A stretch of 64,000 bases of DNA from Ginglymostoma cirratum (taxonomy: Eukaryota). Positions 2,885 through 48,190 of this stretch are shown piece by piece; positions within the stretch are counted from its first letter, which is position 1; each line of letters begins with the position of its first letter. The DNA lies in the NCBI GenBank assembly GCA_024137785.1, contig JAHRHZ010000009.1, positions 23,718,601-23,782,600 of the forward strand. The letters run 5' to 3'. A model generated the notes under the pieces. The model was not told where the DNA came from. It was given only the letters and a program-made list of their open reading frames with translations, and made no database searches. The position numbers and the translations under genes were made by a program.

Positions 2885-3417
2885 CATACTATCCACAACT
2901 TCATCATGAAGTTCATTCCATACGCGAACTACCATCTGCATAAAAAAGAGCCTCTTATGTATTTTTGAAATTTCTGTCCTCTCACCTTAAAAAATGTGAC
3001 CCTAATCTTGTAATGCCCCATCTTAGGAAAAAGACAACTACCATCAACTCTATCTATGTCTCTCTTTTTTTTATAAACTTCTATCAGGTCACCCCTCAAC
3101 CTCCAATGCTCCAATGAAATATGTCCCAGCCTATCCAGGCTTTCCTTATAACTCAAACCTTCCATACCTGGCAATATCCTGGTAAATCTCTTCTGACCCC
3201 TCTCCAGCTTGATAATATCCTTCTGGGTATAACTGAGTAACTAGAACTGGACACTTTTAAAAGACATTTGGATAGATATATGAATAGGAAAGGTTTGGAG
3301 GGATATTGGCCAGGAGCAGGCAGGTGGGACTAGTTTAGTTTTAGTTAATGTTCAGCATAGACTGGTTGGACCGAAGGGTCTACTTCCGTGCTGTGTGACT
3401 CTACGACTCTATGACTA
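2885..3417. mobile_element. CR1 LINE 3' fragment with an internal inversion
   Basis: 2885-3255 on the minus strand encodes MPGMEGLSYKESLDRLGHISLEHWRLRGDLIEVYK (CR1 ORF2 C-terminus). 3255-3417 is the plus-strand 3' UTR ending in GACTCTA-type repeats. Confidence 0.85.
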
Positions 3418-3809: not shown

Positions 3810-3983
3810 ACTAATGTCCTTTAGGGAAGGAAATTGTCATCCTTACCTCATCTGGCCTACATGTGACTCCAGACTCACAGCAATGTGGTTGACTCATGAC
3901 TTCCCTCTGGGCAATTAGTGATGGGCAATAAATGCTGTCTAGCCAGCAATGCCCCCAGCTTGTTAATGAATAAAGAAAAAAAA
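3810..3983 (+). mobile_element. 5'-truncated SINE, same family as 15136-15495
   Basis: ACTAATGTCCTTTAGGGAAGGAAA...CTACATGTGACTCCAGAC...GATGGGCAATAAATGCTG plus an A-rich tail. Direct similarity to 15324-15490. Confidence 0.85.
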
Positions 3984-4061: not shown

Positions 4062-4226
4062 AAAACCAAAAGAACTGCGGATGTTGTAAATCAGGAACAA
4101 AAACAAAGTTGCTGGAAAAACTCAGCAGGTCTGGCAGCATCTGTGGAGGAGAAAACAGAGTTAATGTTTCCGGTCCGGTGACCCTTCCTCAGAACCAAGC
4201 TTTTCCAGCAACTTTGTTTTTGTTCC
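4062..4226 (-). mobile_element. Penelope-like terminal repeat (subfamily A) with a decayed hammerhead motif and a short inverted copy
   Basis: Minus strand reads CTGAGGAAGGGTCACCGGACCGGAAACATTAACTCTG. 4198-4226 is an inverted copy of 4094-4122. Homologous to 15633-15725 and 46585-46722. Confidence 0.8.
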
Positions 4227-10200: not shown

Positions 10201-12629
10201 AAAGAAAATCGTATGTATTTTAATACCAGGATAACAACTTTAGAAAACATCCATTATAAAATCTCCCATAAATATTACATCAGAGCACTCCATTTCTCAT
10301 TGTTGCTTGCTCAATGCCATTTTTCCCTGCTTTTGCTAGTGAAGCTGTTTTCATTTCAGCTGAAGAATGTATTTTCTCACATGGTATGGTACAACAGGGT
10401 TCATCATTTTCCCAAACAACTCTAGTCGTACCACAAATGGAAATTTTAAGAGTGTTACTCTTTTCTTGTGTCATGGAGAGCAACTGGGATCAAAGCATCT
10501 CCTTTACACATAAGCCTACACAACATCAGAGGAAAAGTAACTGTACACTTTACTTTCAAAGAAAACCAATTGTAGGTCAGGGCAAAAGGCTCATTTTGTC
10601 CCCGCTTGCTTCACTTATTAGATTACAATAATAAAACAACAGCCCAGTCCTTCTGGTGGGAAAGAGGTGACCCTGGAGTGATTTATAATCCTGTGTAGCC
10701 CTGTCCATTCTGCTGACCACACTTTATATAAGGGCCATATCTGTTACTTTAACTGATGTCTTCCTGCTGTGACAACACTGTGGGATGTCTGTCATCACAC
10801 AAGCATTTCTGACACACCACATTATCCACATGAATTGCTGTTATGTTAGTTCAACAGAATTTTAACTTAATACAAAAACAGAAAGACAATTATATGAGAT
10901 TTGGATTATCCAAGAGCAGATGACCACAAAGCAGAACACAGCTGGTAAATAATTATTTCAGTGAACGCCCATTCATGTTTACTCCATTATCTTGAAAAGA
11001 AATTGAGTGATAAAATGAATTGGACTTTTAAGGAAAAAAAATCATGGCAACAAACACAAGACCAAACACCTCAGATTGCAAAGTTTGTCACAAAATAAAA
11101 ACGGGCTCCACTATGAGATAAATTATGTTTTGCTGAATAAATCATCCACAGTGGTAATCGCCTGGTATAGAAAAGTACTTCTGATCTGCAGAGATATTCT
11201 AAACCAGAATCGGCATTCTGTAAATAGCTGATTTATCTAATACCAAAATGACTATTTGATTTCTCTTCCCTTTCTCAAGATAATGTGATTTTCAAGGGCA
11301 GTGATATGATTCTTAGTGAGAGATGACAGCAACAGGAATTGAAACATTTTCAATTTTCACTTCTTCAGTCAGCTAATGGTACTAGATACAGATACGAGAT
11401 GCAGATACAATACATCAACAATGCCTAAACACTCAGCCTCAGAAAAATAGTCACACTATGCTGAAACATTTTTTCCATTTCCCACACCATGATTTTTTGC
11501 TAATTGAAATGGTCCAATTGAGTCAATGCTGAATCATGAGTGGCTGTGTGTTATTGTGTATTCTTAACTGTCAGAACACAGAAAGCACAATTTTCCTCTC
11601 TTGGAGCTGGAAAGAAAGACAAATAATGGTGCAACTGGCCTTGCACAGTTAGTCACACCTTTATTACGACCTCAGCAATTAAATATTGGGTCAGTCTCAA
11701 CTCACTGAAAAGAAATGCCCTGAAGTGTTCAATTAGCAGCCACTGAATGAACTCATCTCGACCCCAGCCTGATTACCTGCCTTTCCAATAGCAGAGAAAG
11801 ATGGCTGGTCTTCCCGTTGGCCTGTCTGCCACATTGGACAGGTCATTAGCTTGTCCTAGTCTGGTACCAATTGGCTGCAGCGATGGGGGGAGCAACATGC
11901 TGACCATTGAAATCCAACATCATTGCATTTACTTCCAATCCTCTCCCCGCAATCCTACCTGGCAAAATAAGGAAAAAGACTTACCTTCTTGCTACTGGAT
12001 TTCTTGAGGCCCAGTTCTCCGACAGTGACCTCGAGGTCCCAGCAGCTGATGGCCTCCAATTGGCTGACAGCTTCTGGTGAGGCAGAACATCAATTGTGCA
12101 GGCCTATGATTCACCAAAAGGCTGGCTGTTCAGCTCTTAATAAGCTGATTATAGCTCAATTTGGTGAGCTTTATAGGAGCAGAGAGTCAGTCACCACTGA
12201 ACACACACACACTTAGGTTGGAAAGTGGAAATTCTCAGCTGCGTTGTTAATGTCTGCAGTCATTTCACTTAGGAACTTCATCCAAGAGAAAGAGGAGATG
12301 TTTGTCTTGGCCTCAGTAATATTCAATGTCAGTATGAGTTAATTGACTAGCACAGAAGCAGGCGTATCATGGTCCAAGACAATGCCCAATTCAAACCAAA
12401 ATGAAAACATCAAAATTAAAATTCCCAATATTCTGAATGGCTAAGTGAAAACTTAACACAGTTCCTGGTTTTTGTTTTATTATTTTAAAATAAATATAAA
12501 AAAATTTGCCAGAGCTCCTCTGCTCACCAGTCCCTTTTCCATTCCCTTCATTTATTCTCCTTTCCATAGCTTTTCTTTTCTCTGACCAGCCCCAGTGCCC
12601 CCTGGCCGACCTGGAGAGTGGAGTCAAGG

Positions 12630-13930
12630 AGTACTGAGAGCACGGGCTGAGTATCACAGCAGAGCGAGTACGGCCGAGTCTCACAGCAGAGAGAGCATGG
12701 GCCGAGTCTCACAGCAGAGCGAGTACAGGCTGAGTCTCACAGCAGAGCGAGCATGGGCCAAGTGTCACAGCAGAGAGAGCATGGGCCGAGTCCAGTGTCA
12801 GAGTGAGCACAGGCCGCATCTCACAGCAGAGCGAGTACAGGCTGTGTCCCGCAGCAGAGCGAGTGCGGGCTGAGTCCCGCAGCAGAGCGAGTGCGGGCTG
12901 AGTCTTACAGCAGAGACAGCACAGGCCGAGTCCAGTGGCAGAGCAAACACAGGCCGAGTCTCACAGCAGAGCAAGTACAGGCAGGGTCTCACAGCAGAGA
13001 GAGCACGGATCGAGTCTCACAGCAGAGCGAGGACAGGCCAAGTCACAGCAGAGAGAGNNNNNNNNNNGCCGAGTCTCACAGCAGAGCAAGCATGGGCCGA
13101 GTCTCACAGCAGAGCGAGCACGGGCCGAGTCTCGCAGCAGAGCGAGCATGGGCCGAGTCCAGCGGCAAGTGACTACAGGCCAATTCTTACAGCAGAGCGA
13201 GCACGGGCCGTGTCTCACAGCAGAGCGAGTACAGGCCGTGTCTCACAGCAGAGAGAGCACGGGCCGAGTCTCACAGCAGAGAGAGCACAGACCGAGTCTC
13301 ACAGCAGAGAGAGCACAGACCGATTCTCATAGCAGAGCGAGGACAGGCCAAGTCACAGCAGAGCATGCACAGGCCGAGTCCGGTGGCAAGTGATTACAGG
13401 CCGAGTCTCACAGCAGAGCGAGCACGGGCCAAGTCCAGAGGCAGAGCGAGCACAGGCCGAGTCTCACAGCAGAGCGAGTACAGGCCGAGTCCAGCGGCAG
13501 AGCAAGCACGGGCCGAGTCTCATAGCAGAGAGAGCACAGGCCAAGTCTCACAGCAGAGAGAGCACAGGCTGAGTCCAGCCGCAGAGCGAGTACGGGCCAA
13601 GTCCAGGGTCAGAGCAAGCACGGGCCGAGTCTCACAGCAGAGCGAGCATGGGCCGAGTCTCACAGGAGAGCGATTACAGGCCAAGTCATGCAGCAGAGAG
13701 TGTACAGGCTGAGTCACGCAGCAGAGCAAATACAGGCCGTGTCCCAGACCAGAGTGCGTACAGGCCAGGTCCCGCAGCGGAGCGAGTACAGGCCAGGTCC
13801 TGCAGCGGAGCGAGTACAGGGAGAATCCCGCAGCCGAGCGAGTATAGTCAGAATCCCGCAGCCGAGCGAGTGGTGGCTGAGTCCTGCAGCAGGGAGAGCG
13901 AGCGTTTCCCAGAGTGGTGGCAGAGCGAGA
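12630..13930. repeat. GC-rich 28-bp minisatellite, consensus about ACAGCAGAGCGAGCACGGGCCGAGTCTC, containing an assembly gap
   Basis: Dozens of diverged tandem units. A run of 10 N lies at 13058-13067. The repetitive ORFs (SHSRESTGRVSQQSEHGPSLTAER) come from the unit cycling through three frames. Confidence 0.95.
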
Positions 13931-14238
13931 CCTGGATGGAGGCTGGCATGTGGAGGCAGCATAGAATTGTGCTCTGGGGCCTGCAGGCACAGACTGGAAC
14001 TTAAGTACTTATGGCCACATATTATCATTCTGGACTTTTTCACTGTTTCATGCTAATTTATATTCTTTTTTTTCTGCAACAACTCTATATTTTATTACTA
14101 TGTAAGATTTGTACCTAGGTACTTGTTCCTATGATGGCACCATTAAAGGCAGCCATTGTAAAAATTTTCACTGTATTCCTGTACTTCTGTACTGGAGTAC
14201 ATGTGACAATAAAGGATGTTCTATTGTATTCTATTAAA
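13930..14238 (+). mobile_element. Probable non-autonomous retroelement 3' part attached to the minisatellite
   Basis: Ends TTTTCACTGTA...GTACATGTGACAATAAAG followed by a CTATT-type short repeat tail, a typical non-LTR 3' terminus. Confidence 0.45.
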
Positions 14239-14334
14239 AAGAATCCTTGTCGAACAAAATCATTGCTGCAATGGCTTCCCTCAACCAAGCTTCACAAATC
14301 CCATCCACCTAAATCCAATTACACACGTTTACAT

Positions 14335-14865
14335 TGGAACATAGGCAATGGGAGCAGGAGTAGCCCCTAGTTGGTCCATCAAGCCTGCTCCACCATTCAA
14401 ACAACTATTTACCTCAACATCGCATTTCAACAATCCCTATATCCTTTGATGTAATTACTATCTAAAAGTCTATCAATTTATGTCTTGAACATGTTCAATT
14501 CCAAAGATTCACTTTGACTGAAGGAGTTCCTCCTTGCCTCAATCTTAAACGGCCTGCCACTTATCTTGAGACTGTGTCCCCAGGTTTTAGACCCACTAGC
14601 AAGGGGAAACATCTTTTCTATAAGTATGTTGTTATGCCTTGAAAGAAATGTTTATGTTTCAATGAGTTCACCTCTCATTTTTTGAAACTGCGGTGTATGT
14701 AAACTCTGTTTCCTCAATATCTCCTCATAAGTAATCCTGCCATCCCAGGGATTAGTCTGGTGAACCACCCATGCATTCTCTCTATGTCAAATACATCCTT
14801 CCTTAGGTAAGGAGACAAAACTGTACACAAAAGTCTAGGGTGGTTTTAACAAGGCTCAATATTTG
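14335..14865 (-). mobile_element. CR1-group LINE 3' fragment
   Basis: Reverse complement of a CR1 tail (GGAGCAGGAGTAG...AAGCCTGCTCCACCATTCAA) continuing into decayed ORF2. Confidence 0.75.
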
Positions 14866-15135
14866 CATCAAATCAATGCATTCATGCACACATTTCTAAA
14901 GTAAACCAAAGAAATAATAATAATCCAGTTAATCTCATCTATAACTAATGGTGTGCCATACAGATCATGTGCTGGGCCCACAATTATTTACAATATATAT
15001 TAATGACTTGGATGAAGGAAGTGAATGAGGATGACGTAAAAAATAGGTGGAAAGGCAAGTGCTGATGATGACACAGAGTCTGCAGAGGGATATAGACAGT
15101 TTAAGTGAGTGAACGAAAACTTGGCAGATGGAAGT

Positions 15136-15495
15136 GGGGAGGCGATGGCCTAGTGGTACCATCACTGGACTGTTAATCTGGAGACCCAGAGTGTTCCGGA
15201 GACCCGGGTTTGAATCCCACCATGGCAGATGGTGGGATTTGAATTCAATAAAATATCTGAAATTAAGAATCTAATGATGACTATGAATCCATTGTCGATT
15301 GTCAGGAAAAACCCACCTGGTTCACTAATGTCCTTTAAGGAAGGAAACTGCCATCCCTACCTTGTCTGACCTACATGTGACTCCAGACCCTCAGCCCTGT
15401 GGTTGACTCTTAACTGCCCTCTGGGCAAATAGGGATGGGCAATAAATGCTGCCTGGCCGGTGATGCCCTCATCCCGTGAAAGAACAAAGAATAAA
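15136..15495 (+). mobile_element. Near full-length tRNA-derived SINE
   Basis: Pol III A box TGGCCTAGTGG at 15146-15156, B box GGTTTGAATCC at 15207-15217, LINE-derived tail TAGGGATGGGCAATAAATGCTG and an A-rich end. Confidence 0.85.
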
Positions 15496-15632
15496 GGCAT
15501 ATACTGTGGAGAAATGTGAGATCATGCACTTTGGCAAGAACAATAGAGGAACTAAATATTAGTTAACTGGAGAAAGACTACAGAAGATGGATTTGAGGAT
15601 CCTTGTCCATGGATCACAAAAAGCTCACATTC

Positions 15633-16434
15633 AAAGTTGCTGGAAAAGCCCAGAAGGTCCGGCAGCATCTGCGAAGGAACAAACAGAGTTAACGTTTCGG
15701 GTCCGGTGACTCTTCCTCAGAACTGATGGTGGCTTGGGAAAACATCAGTTTATATGCAGAAATAGGGAGGTGGGGGGGGTATGGAGTAAATGATAGGGTA
15801 GAGCCCAAAGAGAGAGAAAGACAATTGGGCAGACCAAGGAGTTGCTAACGATCAGGCTGGGAGGGTGAACTGTTGTTCATGTAGACTGTTAGTGACTAAC
15901 AGGGGGTGTATGTGGTAACAAGGCCTGGTGTGTGGGGTGGGGGGTTGGGAAATGGGAGAGTTTAGGCCTTAAAATTATTGAACTCAATATTGAGTCCAGA
16001 GGGCTGTAGGGTCCCCAAGCGGAAAATGAGGTGTTGTTCCTTGACCTTGCGTTGCGCTTCGCTGGAACACTGCAGCAAGCCAGAGACAGAGATGTTGGCC
16101 AGGGAGCAGGGTGCTGTGTTAGAGTGGCAGGCAACGGGTAGTTCAGGGTCTTTTTTGTGAGCAGAACGTAGATGTTCTGTGAAGCAGTCACCAAGTCTAC
16201 GCTTCATTTCTCCAATGTAGCAGAGACCACATTGTGAGCAGCGAATGCAGTGGACTAGCTTCTGGGAAGTGCAGGTGAAGTGTCGCTTCACCTGAAAGGT
16301 ATATTTGGGCCCTTGGATAGTGGGGAGGGAGGAGGTCATTTTCCTTCACAGATGCTGCCAGACCTGTTGGGCTTTTCCAGCAACTTCGTTTTTGTTCCTG
16401 ATTTACAGAATCCGCGGTCCTTTCAGTTTTTATT
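15633..16434 (-). mobile_element. 5'-truncated Penelope-like element (GIY-YIG endonuclease fragment) with an inverted terminal repeat and a TSD
   Basis: ORF 15962-16339 reads FTCTSQKLVHCIRCSQCGLCYIGEMKRRLGDCFTEHLRS...EQHLIFRLGTLQPSGLN. 16339-16430 is an inverted terminal copy. Flanks are AAGCTCACATTC (15621-15632) and AAGCTCGCATTC (16435-16446). Confidence 0.9.
15688..15725 (-). ncRNA. Putative minimal type-I hammerhead ribozyme (best-preserved copy in the window)
   Basis: Minus strand CAGUU CUGAGGA A GAGUC ACCG GACCC GAAAC GUU AACU. Intact CUGANGA and GAAA core, stem II with one mismatch, palindromic AACGUU in place of stem III, stem I AGUU/AACU. Confidence 0.65.
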
Positions 16435-18329
16435 AAGCTCGCATTCGAGTTCAGTCAGTACTAACAAAAGCAAGTGGAATACTGGCCTTCATTTTGAAGT
16501 GAATGAAATATAAAATTAGGGAGATTTTGCTAAAACTGTACAAGGTCCTAGTCAGATTACACTTGAAAACTATGAACTGTTTTGAGACCCCTAATTAAGA
16601 AAAGATATACTGGCATTGGACGCAGTCAGAGAAGATTCACTAGGTTGATACCAGGTTTGAAGAGACTGTCTTATGAGGGGATGTTGAGTAGACTGGGCCT
16701 GTACTCATTGAAATATAGAAGAATGAGAGGCGACTTTATTGAAACATACAAGACTCTGAGAGGACTTGACAGAGTAGATGGAGAAATGCTGTTTCCCCTT
16801 ATGGAAGAGTCTAGAACCACAGGACAGAATCAAGGGGCTGCACGTTTAAGACAGATATGAGAAGGAATTTCTTCAGTCAGAGTGCAGTGAATCGGTGGAA
16901 TTCTTTTCTACACAGCACAGTGAGGCTGATTTCTGAAGTATATTCAAGACCGAGATAGACAAATTTTTTTTACATGTAAGGAGTCTAGGGTTTTGCAGAA
17001 AAAGCAGGAAAATGGAGTTGAGGTTTATCAGATCAACCATGTTCTCAATGAATAACAGAGTAGACATGATGGGCTGAGTGATCTATCTCTGCTCCTATGT
17101 CTTGCAGTCCTAACCCTCAAATGCTTATAAAGAAACGTTATTGAGGCTGTAGGAAACAAAAAGGAAAATCATAAATTTACACATTATCAGGGCCCATACT
17201 AGTGTAGTATGCATTTGAACCCACGTTAAATAAAGACTGTGTTAAATACCACACAATTAGGAAAGTTAAAAGATTTGATTCTTTTTAAAAACTTTTCAAA
17301 ATGTTGTTTAATAATCCAGTTGAACCATGAGATAATAAATTGCAGATCCGAAAATGTATCTATTTACTATTGTGTACTTTAGCTATCAACAATAACTAAG
17401 AAAGCTTTAAGAAAAGGTATTTCTTCCACTGCTCTATCTCTTTTTCATTTATTTAGGTTAAAATTAACATATTTTCCACAGTGCATGAGTTGTTAGTTAA
17501 TTAATTATGCAATGGAAGTTAAAGCAAAGAAAACCAAATTCTACATATTTATAATTCTGTAATTGTTTAAAATCTTGTCTCCTTTGATCAAGCATTTGAT
17601 AACAACATGGAAGAAAGTCAATAAAAATATGTTATCATTTATAAAGTTACATCTAATAGCCTGGTAAACTTTATCAAATTGTCCTTATTTGCATATTATT
17701 GGCATTGAAAAGCTCAAATCAATATGTAATCGATGATGATTTTTCTTGGGAATATTAGTCCAGCTGTAAAGGAATTAAAACATTCGGATCTGTTGAGCCT
17801 TGGTTTTTATATTAAACACTGACTCATGCAATATAAAATCAGCTGTTGATGTCAGCTTAGCAGCAACAACGAACCAAGTATTGAGAGAAGTAGTCAAATT
17901 GTCATGTGACTATGTCACTTTTTTACTAAAACAATGAATTTGTGCTTTGCCTTTACTTAAAATCTTGTGAATGTTTCAGGATTCTGATGGCACTCTATGT
18001 TCAAGAAATATTTCCATGTCATCCACTTCAAAGTACTAATTAAACCTGACACAAATGTAGGCTCGAGTTAGAAAGCTAAGGTAAAACTGTTTAGAGCAAC
18101 ATTACAAAGTTCAGGTAAACTCAAAACAGGTGCATTGAATCACATCTGGCAAAAATCATAATATCTTGATTTTATTTAGGGTTTTACCTGCTCATACCAT
18201 TTCAAATTGTTTTAAATCATTATTTAAGTTTGCAAGCAAAAGCTGCCATTATAAAGATGAACACAGCAACCATTCTGAATGTTGAGACTCCCTCAAATTC
18301 CAATGAATAACCTTTTCTTTTCTGGAAGG

Positions 18330-33420: not shown

Positions 33421-33791
33421 CTCATCTTTAACCTTTATAACTGGGCACAAGGAGCTGTTACTTCTTTCAGCGTTTCAAAAAAAATCTCGCTTTTCTCTTT
33501 AACCGAACTTAAATTTCTGCTGCTAAGGAACGTAAGAGTTAAACTTTTGTTTGCTGCGGAGGGCGAGAGAGTTACCAGGGAAGCCAAGTTGCGGGGAGTT
33601 GCTGGAGTGAGAGCTCACTGTTCCCTATCCCTGAGCCCGAATTCTGCCCTGGATGGCCGTGTTGGTCTCTCTCTGGTCACTAGGAGCCTCTCTGTCAACC
33701 TCCCCCCAACCCCCATCCCCTCCTCCCCGCCTGAATGACCATTGCCCGCTCAGATGATAGCGTGGCCCGGGACACACTCTCTCTCTCTTAC

Positions 33792-34324
33792 CTGGCGTTG
33801 GTACAGTCGTTGTAGAGGATTTCGAAATCCTTCCTGGAGATGAGTTTACAGCGGTTGACCCCGGGCTGGATGGCGCCCAGGCCCCGCAGGATGCGCACTT
33901 GCTCCACATTGCAGACCACGGGCGTTATATCCAGCCTCTTCAACTTGGTGTAGACGGTGTGCAGCCCGCCGACCAGGTGCTTGAGGAAGAGGTCGAAGGC
34001 CTGGGGCAGGCAGATCAGCTCGTGTCCGTCCACGGTGAACGAGGCCACCTTGGCCCCCCGCAGCTCCACCATCCTGCACTCGTTGTTCTGCGGCGTGTTC
34101 TCGACCGGAGACGGCGTGGAATAAACCGGTTTCGTGCCGCCGTCCGCCCGGAATAAACTCTGTGCTGTCCCCGCTGTCCCTGGCCCTGCTCCCGCTGTAG
34201 CTCCGGCCGTCGAGGAAGTGATTGCAGGAGAAGATGAAGAGGAGGAAGATGAGGAGGATGAAGGGGTCGAGATTGGAGTCTGATTCACCGGAGCTGGTGG
34301 GATCAGTGCAACCGGAACAGCCAT
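33792..34324 (-). CDS. DACH1: Dachshund homolog 1, first coding exon (N-terminus plus the DD1/Box-N SKI-SNO-DAC domain); the gene continues beyond the left edge of the window
   Basis: Translation MAVPVALIPP...KPVYSTPSPVENTPQNNECRMVELRGAKVASFTVDGHELICLPQAFDLFLKHLVGGLHTVYTKLKRLDITPVVCNVEQVRILRGLGAIQPGVNRCKLISRKDFEILYNDCTNA. The MAVPxALIPP start and KPVYSTPSPVENTPQNNEC fit DACH1 rather than DACH2. Strong Kozak context GCAACCATGG. The exon ends AAC GCC AG|GTAAGA, a phase-2 donor. The ORF-track TTG start at 34405 is not the likely start. Confidence 0.96.
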
Positions 34325-46580: not shown

Positions 46581-46584
46581 TAAA

Positions 46585-48190
46585 TAAAAACCAAAAGAAC
46601 TGTGGATGCTGTAAATCAGGATCCAAAACAGAAGTTACTGGAAAAGCTCAGTAGGTCTGGCAGCATCAGTGAAGAAAAATCAGAGTTAACGTTTTGTGTC
46701 TAGGGACCCTTCCTCAGACTGATGGTTACCCTGAAAATGTCAGTTTGTATGCAGAAGATAGAGTGGAGGGAGGGGGTAAGAAATAAACAATAGGTGGAGA
46801 TAGACCTCAAAGAGAGGGAAGAACAATTGGATAGACAAAGGAGTTGATAATCATCTGTCTATGAAGGTGAATAACCGTTATAAGAACTGTTAGTGACTGA
46901 CAATAGGTAGTGTGTAATGGCAGGCTATTTGATAATAAGGCCTGGTGTGTGGGGTAGGGACTAAAGCATGGGAGAGTTTAAACCCTAAGATTAATGAACT
47001 CAATATTCAGTCCAGAGGGCTGCAGGGTCCCCAAGTGGAAAATGAGGTGTTATTCTTCCAGCTTGTGTTGAGCTTCACTGCAATACTGCAGCAAGCCTGA
47101 GACAGAGATGTTGGCCAGGGAACAGGGTGGTGTGTTGAAGTGGCAGGCTGATGGAAGCTCAGGGTCTTTTTTGTGAGCAGAACATAGATGTTCTGTGAAA
47201 CGGCCACCCAGTCTGCGATTTGTTTCCCCAATGTAGAGGAGACCACATTGTCAGCAGTGAATGCAGTAGACTAAATTCTGGGAAGAGCATGTGCAGTGCT
47301 GCTTCACCTTGAAGGTATGCTTGGGCCCTTGGATATTGAGGAGGGAGGAGGTAAATAGGCAGGTGTTACACCTTCCTTGGTTTCAGGGGAAGGTACCGTG
47401 GGGCTGTGGGGGTGTGTTGGGAGTGAAGGAAGAGTGGACCAGGGTGTCCCAGAGGGAATGGTCCCTGCAGAAGGTGGATAAGGCAGGGGAGGTGAATATA
47501 TGTCTAGTGGTGGCATTTATCTTGCCAGAGGTGGCGGAAATGGCATCTGATGATCTGGATGTGGATCATGGGGGGATGTTAAGTAACGACAAGGGGAACC
47601 CTATTGCTGTTGCGGAAGGGAAGAGAAGAGGGTGAGGGTGGAAGTGTTGAAGATGGGTCGGACCCGGTTGAGGGCCCTGTTGACAATGGTGCTGGGGAAT
47701 CCTTGGTTGAGGAAGAAGGTGAACATTTTGGAGGCTGTCTTGTTGAAGTTGGCCTCATCTGAACATATGCAACGGAGACGGAGGAAATGAGAGAATGGGA
47801 TGGAGTCTTTACAGGAAGTGGGCTGTGAGGATTTATAGTCCAGGTAGCTGTGGGAGTTGGTGAGTTTATAGTGGATATTAGTGTCCAGTCCATCCCCAGA
47901 AATGGAAACAGAGATGTTGAGGAAGGGAAGGGAGGATTCAGATATAGACCAGGTGAAAGTGAGGACAGGGTGGAAATTGGAAGCGAAATCAATGAACATT
48001 TCCAATTTCGGAAAAGAGAGGGAAGCAGCACCGATGATATCATTGATATATCGGAGAAACAGTTCTGGGTGAGAGCCAGGATAAGATTGGAACAAGGAAT
48101 GTTCCACATACCCACGAAGAGACAGTCATAACTGGGGTCCATGTGGGTAATGACCACGAAGTGCAATCCCATGGTGGTCCAAGTACATCA
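46585..48190 (-). mobile_element. Penelope-like retroelement remnant (RT, GIY-YIG and terminal repeat), pseudogenised
   Basis: MDPSYDCLFVG, LFLRYINDI (decayed YIDD), LPFLNISVSI, HSYLDYKSSQPTSCKDSIPFSHFLRLRCICSD. 46630-47350 is colinear with 15633-16335. Frameshifted. Confidence 0.92.

Follow-up and report, generated by a model that had tools for sequence, protein, structure and literature searches.

The hammerhead motif in intron 1 of a DACH1-type gene of Ginglymostoma cirratum is most probably (about 0.88 by our estimate) a standard end-of-element ribozyme of a Penelope-like element (PLE), likely a decaying passenger that seldom, if ever, cuts the nascent RNA. It lies in a 64,000-nt stretch of contig JAHRHZ010000009.1, hereafter the window, and its parts, read from the sequence, are as follows.

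15687..15724, minus strand: minimal type I hammerhead motif without a stem III loop (sequence, descriptor scan, family copies)
15724-15721 (AGUU) with 15690-15687 (AACU), minus strand: stem I, 4 bp
15720-15714, minus strand: core segment CUGAGGA
15713, minus strand: extra A between positions 9 and 10.1
15699..15712, minus strand: stem II, 5 bp with a 4-nt loop and one A-C mismatch (15711/15700)
15698-15695, minus strand: core GAAA
15691..15696, minus strand: palindrome AACGUU, ending in the GUU triplet (self-duplex -5.5 kcal/mol)

The cut site, which we take from standard hammerhead numbering to be 15691|15690 on the minus strand, belongs to a motif whose core (CUGANGA ... GAAA ... UH) is complete and whose core bases, CpG-containing palindrome and stem I are all intact. 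The closing pair of stem II, G10.1-C11.1 (G15712-C15699), is present; the mismatch is pair 10.2-11.2, and four of the five stem II pairs are possible. The first-pass annotation had described a complete core, an extra A after A9, a 4-bp stem I and AACGUU replacing a stem III hairpin, all of which we confirm; the motif reads as it was written there, with true limits one base lower than the 15688..15725 given. The palindrome would make stem III only between two copies, as in the dimer model of palindrome pairing for minimal hammerheads (PMC4209133).

A hammerhead descriptor scan, as had been suggested for this motif, gave two loose matches on both strands of the window, of which 15687-15724 is the better; the strict form of the descriptor matched only once across 40 simulated 64-kb sequences. 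An Rfam search of 14000-18000 returned seven matches at E<=10, with no hammerhead among them, which we take as a limit of the models and not as counter-evidence.

Cervera and De la Pena (2014; PMC4209133) defined the minimal hammerheads (min-HHR) of metazoan PLEs, for which they report no cleavage as monomers and low cleavage as dimers. The shark motif resembles this class in its type I topology, 4-bp stem I, extra base 9/10.1 and G10.1-C11.1 pair, in its palindromic 15.2-16.2 positions without a stem III loop, and in its location in a terminal repeat of an element dispersed mostly as single truncated copies. It departs from the Schistosoma examples, with a stem II of 5 bp instead of 7-8 bp, and the DACH1-intron copy has a mismatch adjoining its closing pair. 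Judged on core, palindrome, extra base and element context, 15687-15724 is a member of the PLE minimal type I hammerheads, and its earlier assignment as such is borne out. No shark is named in the sections of PMC4209133 consulted, and our literature search for shark PLE hammerheads found no example, although supplements may list some.

The host gene is defined by its first exon, on the same strand as the motif.

33792..34324, minus strand: coding part of exon 1 of the DACH1-type gene (Pfam Ski_Sno_DHD, E 4e-43)
33791, minus strand: donor of intron 1

The 33792-34324 frame is 95-99% identical to carpet-shark dachshund proteins, named dachshund c, dachshund d and dachshund homolog 1-like; we presume the label DACH1 from these names and from resemblance to the DACH1 N-terminus. 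Exon 2 is found at C9:23573646, with further exons downstream on C9, so that with the donor at 33791 intron 1 spans about 179 kb. The motif lies about 18 kb into it in the same sense as the gene, which establishes the sense position in DACH1 intron 1 claimed earlier. A second dachshund paralogue, 78% identical, is on C267. Intron 1 also holds a tandem array with a 28-nt period (window 12598-13978).

The motif is embedded in an insertion of recognizable structure.

15632..16336, minus strand: 5'-truncated Penelope-like element fragment, 705 nt, 82-90% identical to other copies
15962..16336, minus strand: open C-terminal part of a GIY-YIG endonuclease frame, about 124 codons plus stop (from translation)
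16339..16437, plus strand: inverted second copy of the tail, without a ribozyme (inverted repeat with 15634-15679; alignment with sister tails)

Many genomic copies align across the full fragment, whose order is ORF end, 3' UTR, hammerhead and a tail of about 59 nt beyond the cut site. The hammerhead thus ends the fragment, and its annotation as a Penelope-like element terminus holds. The 15962..16336 frame of the DACH1-intron copy has no match in a Pfam search; it is homologous to that of a sister copy (L003) with a weak GIY-YIG match (E 4e-4, 21 bits, just below the 22.6 cut-off). Longer sister copies extend 5' of the fragment. A mini-element with a shared 5' end at 16336 was considered and rejected, as 11 of 13 listed sister copies extend 5' in register; of the other two, one extends 5' after a deletion and one becomes an inverted piece. 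Sister copies L008 and L003 carry a CX4CxxC linker before the endonuclease, and the DACH1-intron copy is truncated just after the position of this linker. A CX2-5CxxC linker is assigned to Neptune, Nematis and Naiad elements in PMC8557442, and the linker in the sisters points to an element of Neptune/Nematis type rather than Poseidon.

The inverted tail starts about 10 nt past the cut-site position. The 15632-16437 insertion combines 5' truncation, an inverted piece alongside and a tail on one side, a layout described in PMC8557442. No clear target-site duplication was found at the insertion, the best matches being 5-6 nt. The inverted tails (15632-15681 and 16339-16386) could pair into a helix some 46 bp long (-88.7 kcal/mol by prediction) that would close a 660-nt loop in the pre-mRNA and end a few bases from stem I. 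To the left of the element, a 172-nt repeat at 15324-15495 recurs at 3810-3981 (83% alike), each near a ribozyme-bearing copy; it is probably another common repeat.

Contigs from two related species seem to span the right junction of the insertion (34 differences over 358 nt and 9 over 160 nt). This shared junction suggests that the insertion is older than those splits; among the related-species contigs listed, none spans the left flank into the motif.

Vertebrate non-LTR retrozymes, reported in one cartilaginous fish, carry a type I hammerhead that goes back to the terminal repeats of PLEs (bioRxiv 10.64898/2026.07.22.740005). According to that preprint they consist of tandem units, each with its own ribozyme. 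The shark insertion, with its coding remnants and inverted tail, stands alone; it contains one ribozyme, and the next copy is 11.5 kb away. We also looked through 19 RT-bearing loci and their 1.5-kb flanks for a complete element preceded by a direct repeat. One of the 19 (L123) has a same-strand upstream ribozyme; its two same-strand ribozymes, at L123:502-577 and 2924-3019, lie 2.4 kb apart around RT sequence and make it a candidate partial tandem. Upstream of DACH1, a longer 5'-truncated copy of the same family (window 46583-48150, minus strand) retains RT remnants and a broken ribozyme.

The family is large. Exact pattern counts over the 4.36-Gb assembly, with reversed-pattern controls that all gave 0, found 10,004 copies in which the whole core and GUY-AAC are intact. 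The exact A-C variant, identical to 15687-15724, occurs in 63 copies and the G-C form in 2,196; an A-C share of 2.8% is what recurrent G-to-A decay would give. These genome-wide counts give no support to the idea that the A-C form is a subfamily: it does make up 9 of the 27 nearest copies, because the DACH1-intron copy itself was the search query. Position 15711 is G in most family copies, and the stem II mismatch is evidently a decay from the G-C state.

Set against a family majority taken column by column from up to 27 copies (from 29 loci), the DACH1-intron copy differs at 50 of 705 sites. Of the 38 motif sites, that of the stem II base alone departs from the family; the probability of no more than one such change is P=0.24, and at the same divergence a 15-nt core would survive whole with probability 0.33. 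The ribozyme hence shows, in this comparison within the genome, no excess of conservation over the rest of the element. Possible weakness had been attributed to the stem II mismatch and to the GUU triplet together. The mismatch stands, as the sole departure from the family; the triplet does not, since all 27 of the 27 aligned family copies have T at U17. Nor is the extra A a sign of damage: it is the family norm, the extra base being A in 29 of 31 near-intact motifs of two dachshund genes, and PMC4209133 gives an additional base between 9 and 10.1 among the traits of minimal hammerheads.

Folding models, which leave out protein help and tertiary contacts, give stem II pair probabilities of at most 0.10 in the DACH1-intron copy at three window sizes, compared with at least 0.99 in a G-C copy; the predicted stem II hairpin has -1.5 kcal/mol with A-C and -8.4 with G-C. 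Stem II is thus predicted to be mostly not formed in this copy, and the suggestion that its ribozyme is weak or dead is supported as probable. The predicted homodimer pairs the palindromes without forming the hammerhead stems.

Where family copies begin bears on the RNA from which they were made. Among 171 tail-bearing loci, 141 are at least 80% alike to a reference, and of these 48 start 30-37 nt 5' of the cut site, at the 5' edge of the ribozyme, against 4 within 3 nt of the cut site. We therefore rejected the proposal that copies start at the cut site, as from cleaved RNA. In a sample of 30 consecutive family copies from one contig (C1), chosen for reaching the 5' edge of the core, upstream sequence of the element is missing from 26, and in 24 of these the match extends just 2-6 bases 5' of the core. 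A pattern with upstream bases is matched by 2,447 copies across the genome and one without them by 17,050, the two patterns differing in length, and mixed flanks at the 15721-15725 equivalent appear in four runs from related species. That most copies start just 5' of the ribozyme, not at the cut, suggests copying from uncut RNA; on the simplest reading, reverse transcriptase would run off the 5' end of an uncut RNA starting at the ribozyme edge.

The boundary at the 15721-15726 equivalent may be the transcription start of the element; if so, a capped leader some 34 nt long would be lost on cleavage. The bases TCAGTT at the boundary presumably resemble an initiator, and they also end a splice-acceptor-like stretch. 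There are two stretches that we take to be splice-acceptor-like on the minus strand, 15723-15750 and 15662-15692, each with a branch-point-like motif, a pyrimidine tract and CAG; the former ends within the 5' arm of stem I, and the branch-point-like bases of the latter fall on the cut site, its end being closely followed by an ATG. A cap-derived extra G as a mark of the 5' boundary was discarded, G being present in 8 of 25 truncated copies with no clear excess in 26 more. In one of the four related-species runs, the matches of 122 contigs break off at 15690 and give way to mixed flanks, which hints at cutting of some family RNAs in vivo; the palindrome could be another source of these stops. 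Our literature search found no paper titles on a start site at the PLE ribozyme edge.

A close parallel is Poseidon of Anolis carolinensis (PAc), whose ribozyme is described by Frangieh et al. (PMC11167929) as cutting only with the element's protein, with unprocessed RNA as the main template for insertion and no RNA-seq reads ending at the ribozyme cut site. Like PAc, the shark element is an endonuclease-bearing vertebrate PLE with its ribozyme just 5' of a tail, of about 100 nt in PAc. The PAc ORF, according to the same paper, starts at stem II, unlike in the shark motif, where N7 is G and the core consequently has no ATG.

We accordingly read the DACH1-intron copy as a passenger with the following history. 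It would have been reverse-transcribed from RNA uncut, or re-joined, at the cut site, because its DNA runs through that position, and after insertion it would have drifted about 7% from its family. Cleavage would then need a second copy, pairing through only 4 + 4 base pairs. Even a slow cut in the intron would be unlikely to stop splicing, as introns cut by a slow hammerhead still get spliced in published work (PMC2995048). What speaks against a passenger is that core bases, palindrome and stem I are intact; a dimer could also use the DACH1-intron copy as the cut strand, which does not call on its own stem II.

Partner copies were sought with this in mind in the surrounding gene.

4104..4195, minus strand: nearest same-family sense copy, a stub starting at the ribozyme, with C11.1 and G16.2 changed

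This stub lies 11.5 kb further into the intron than 15687-15724, and the next intact-core sense copy of the family is 166 kb off with a damaged stem I arm; a matching intact partner is evidently absent nearby. A profile search gave 135 matches from several families in 664 kb. The ACGU palindrome is common to all families found, and the core holds its place in several diverged families despite different stems. One other-family hammerhead, at L068:2224-2267 on the plus strand, differs in its stem I pairs and in having a longer stem II that is fully re-paired; it lies antisense in a later DACH1 intron.

Among the alternatives, the one that fares best, though we hold it to be unlikely, is low-level cutting of the DACH1-intron copy as a substrate strand by an intact family copy, in trans or from further along the pre-mRNA. 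Pairing would go through stems I and III, perhaps with help from the Penelope protein, and the mature mRNA would be unaffected. The strand bearing the cleavage site is identical to the family majority and thousands of perfect copies exist in the genome, yet just 8 bp would join the two strands. All families found share the palindrome, but the other-family sense copies in intron 1 fit stem I poorly, and the predicted homodimer pairs the palindromes without the hammerhead stems. Protein-assisted cleavage has been shown for the anole element (PMC11167929); in the shark, however, 39 of 39 other scored family copies are 86-89% alike to the query and none appears young and protein-coding.

A bolder version is decidedly less probable still. 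Thousands of minimal hammerheads sharing ACGU would pair at a distance or between RNAs and cut host transcripts co-transcriptionally, and the DACH1-intron copy would be the cut strand, tuning DACH1 output 18 kb into the intron. If this were true, shark pre-mRNAs from all over the genome, that of a developmental regulator among them, would be broken by intronic PLE ribozymes.

We give very little credence to co-option of the ribozyme for regulating DACH1, in which a cut in the nascent transcript would alter splicing or termination in the manner of the conserved intronic hammerheads of amniotes. Such motifs have been domesticated in introns of RECK and other amniote genes (PMC6155905), and the shark copy is likewise intronic, sense to the pre-mRNA and, as is thought of them, derived from a retroelement. 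That it is sense, lies early in a very long first intron, has an intact core and belongs to an old insertion would be in keeping with a host function. The amniote hammerheads described there are, however, deeply conserved and canonical-like, with tertiary contacts, whereas the shark motif is minimal, multi-copy and still within a decaying element. Canonical motifs have a stem I of 6 bp against 4 bp here, and the stem III hairpin of RECK-type motifs is missing. Conservation within the genome is not above neutral (1/38 compared with 50/705), the single change in the motif is destabilizing, and chance alone would leave the core intact in a third of copies of such age.

Other motifs in the dachshund genes also weigh against a host role. 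A strand survey of the two genes (834 kb, of which 34 kb read N) yielded 45 descriptor matches, of which 31 were kept for having the CG, no more than one mismatch in stem II and two pairs in stem I. Sense orientation is seen in 17 of these 31 near-intact motifs (p=0.72), and in 10 of 17 within DACH1; there is no strand bias, a weak result given the low power of 31 motifs. DACH1 has 11 strict-core sense copies. Intron 1 accounts for five, three of which are predicted to form stem II at a probability of at least 0.8. Intron 1 thus holds four other intact-core sense copies, three of which are predicted to fold better than 15687-15724. Given the 10,004 intact-core copies, the four other sense copies in intron 1 and the absence of strand bias, we see no reason to suspect a host role.

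The covariation set comprised 35 sequences, the DACH1-intron copy and 34 distinct descriptor matches, with one row misaligned and G10.1-C11.1 fixed by the selection rule. Paired cells amounted to 84.5% compared with 81.3% after shuffling, and the covariation score was 0.238 compared with 0.199; neither was reached in any of 500 shuffles, a result inflated by relatedness. Two-sided changes occur in all four stem I pairs and in no stem II pair, a count of four that 84 of 500 shuffles reached. Covariation thus lends modest support to the families as structured RNAs, and not to the DACH1-intron copy itself. That the motif is a chance match, or mere shared sequence without RNA structure, is scarcely credible: the missing Rfam match, the lack of two-sided change in stem II and the count of four two-sided pairs that 84 of 500 shuffles reached would fit it, but not the rarity of strict matches in simulated windows, the core kept in place by diverged families with different stems, the scores that no shuffle reached, or an architecture that fits the consensus published in PMC4209133.

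The DACH1-intron copy in itself matters little: the motif was described in 2014, and this is one worn example of it. The family to which it belongs is of modest value as a natural record for the role of PLE hammerheads, with its roughly 10,000 intact-core copies and their sharp 5' boundary.
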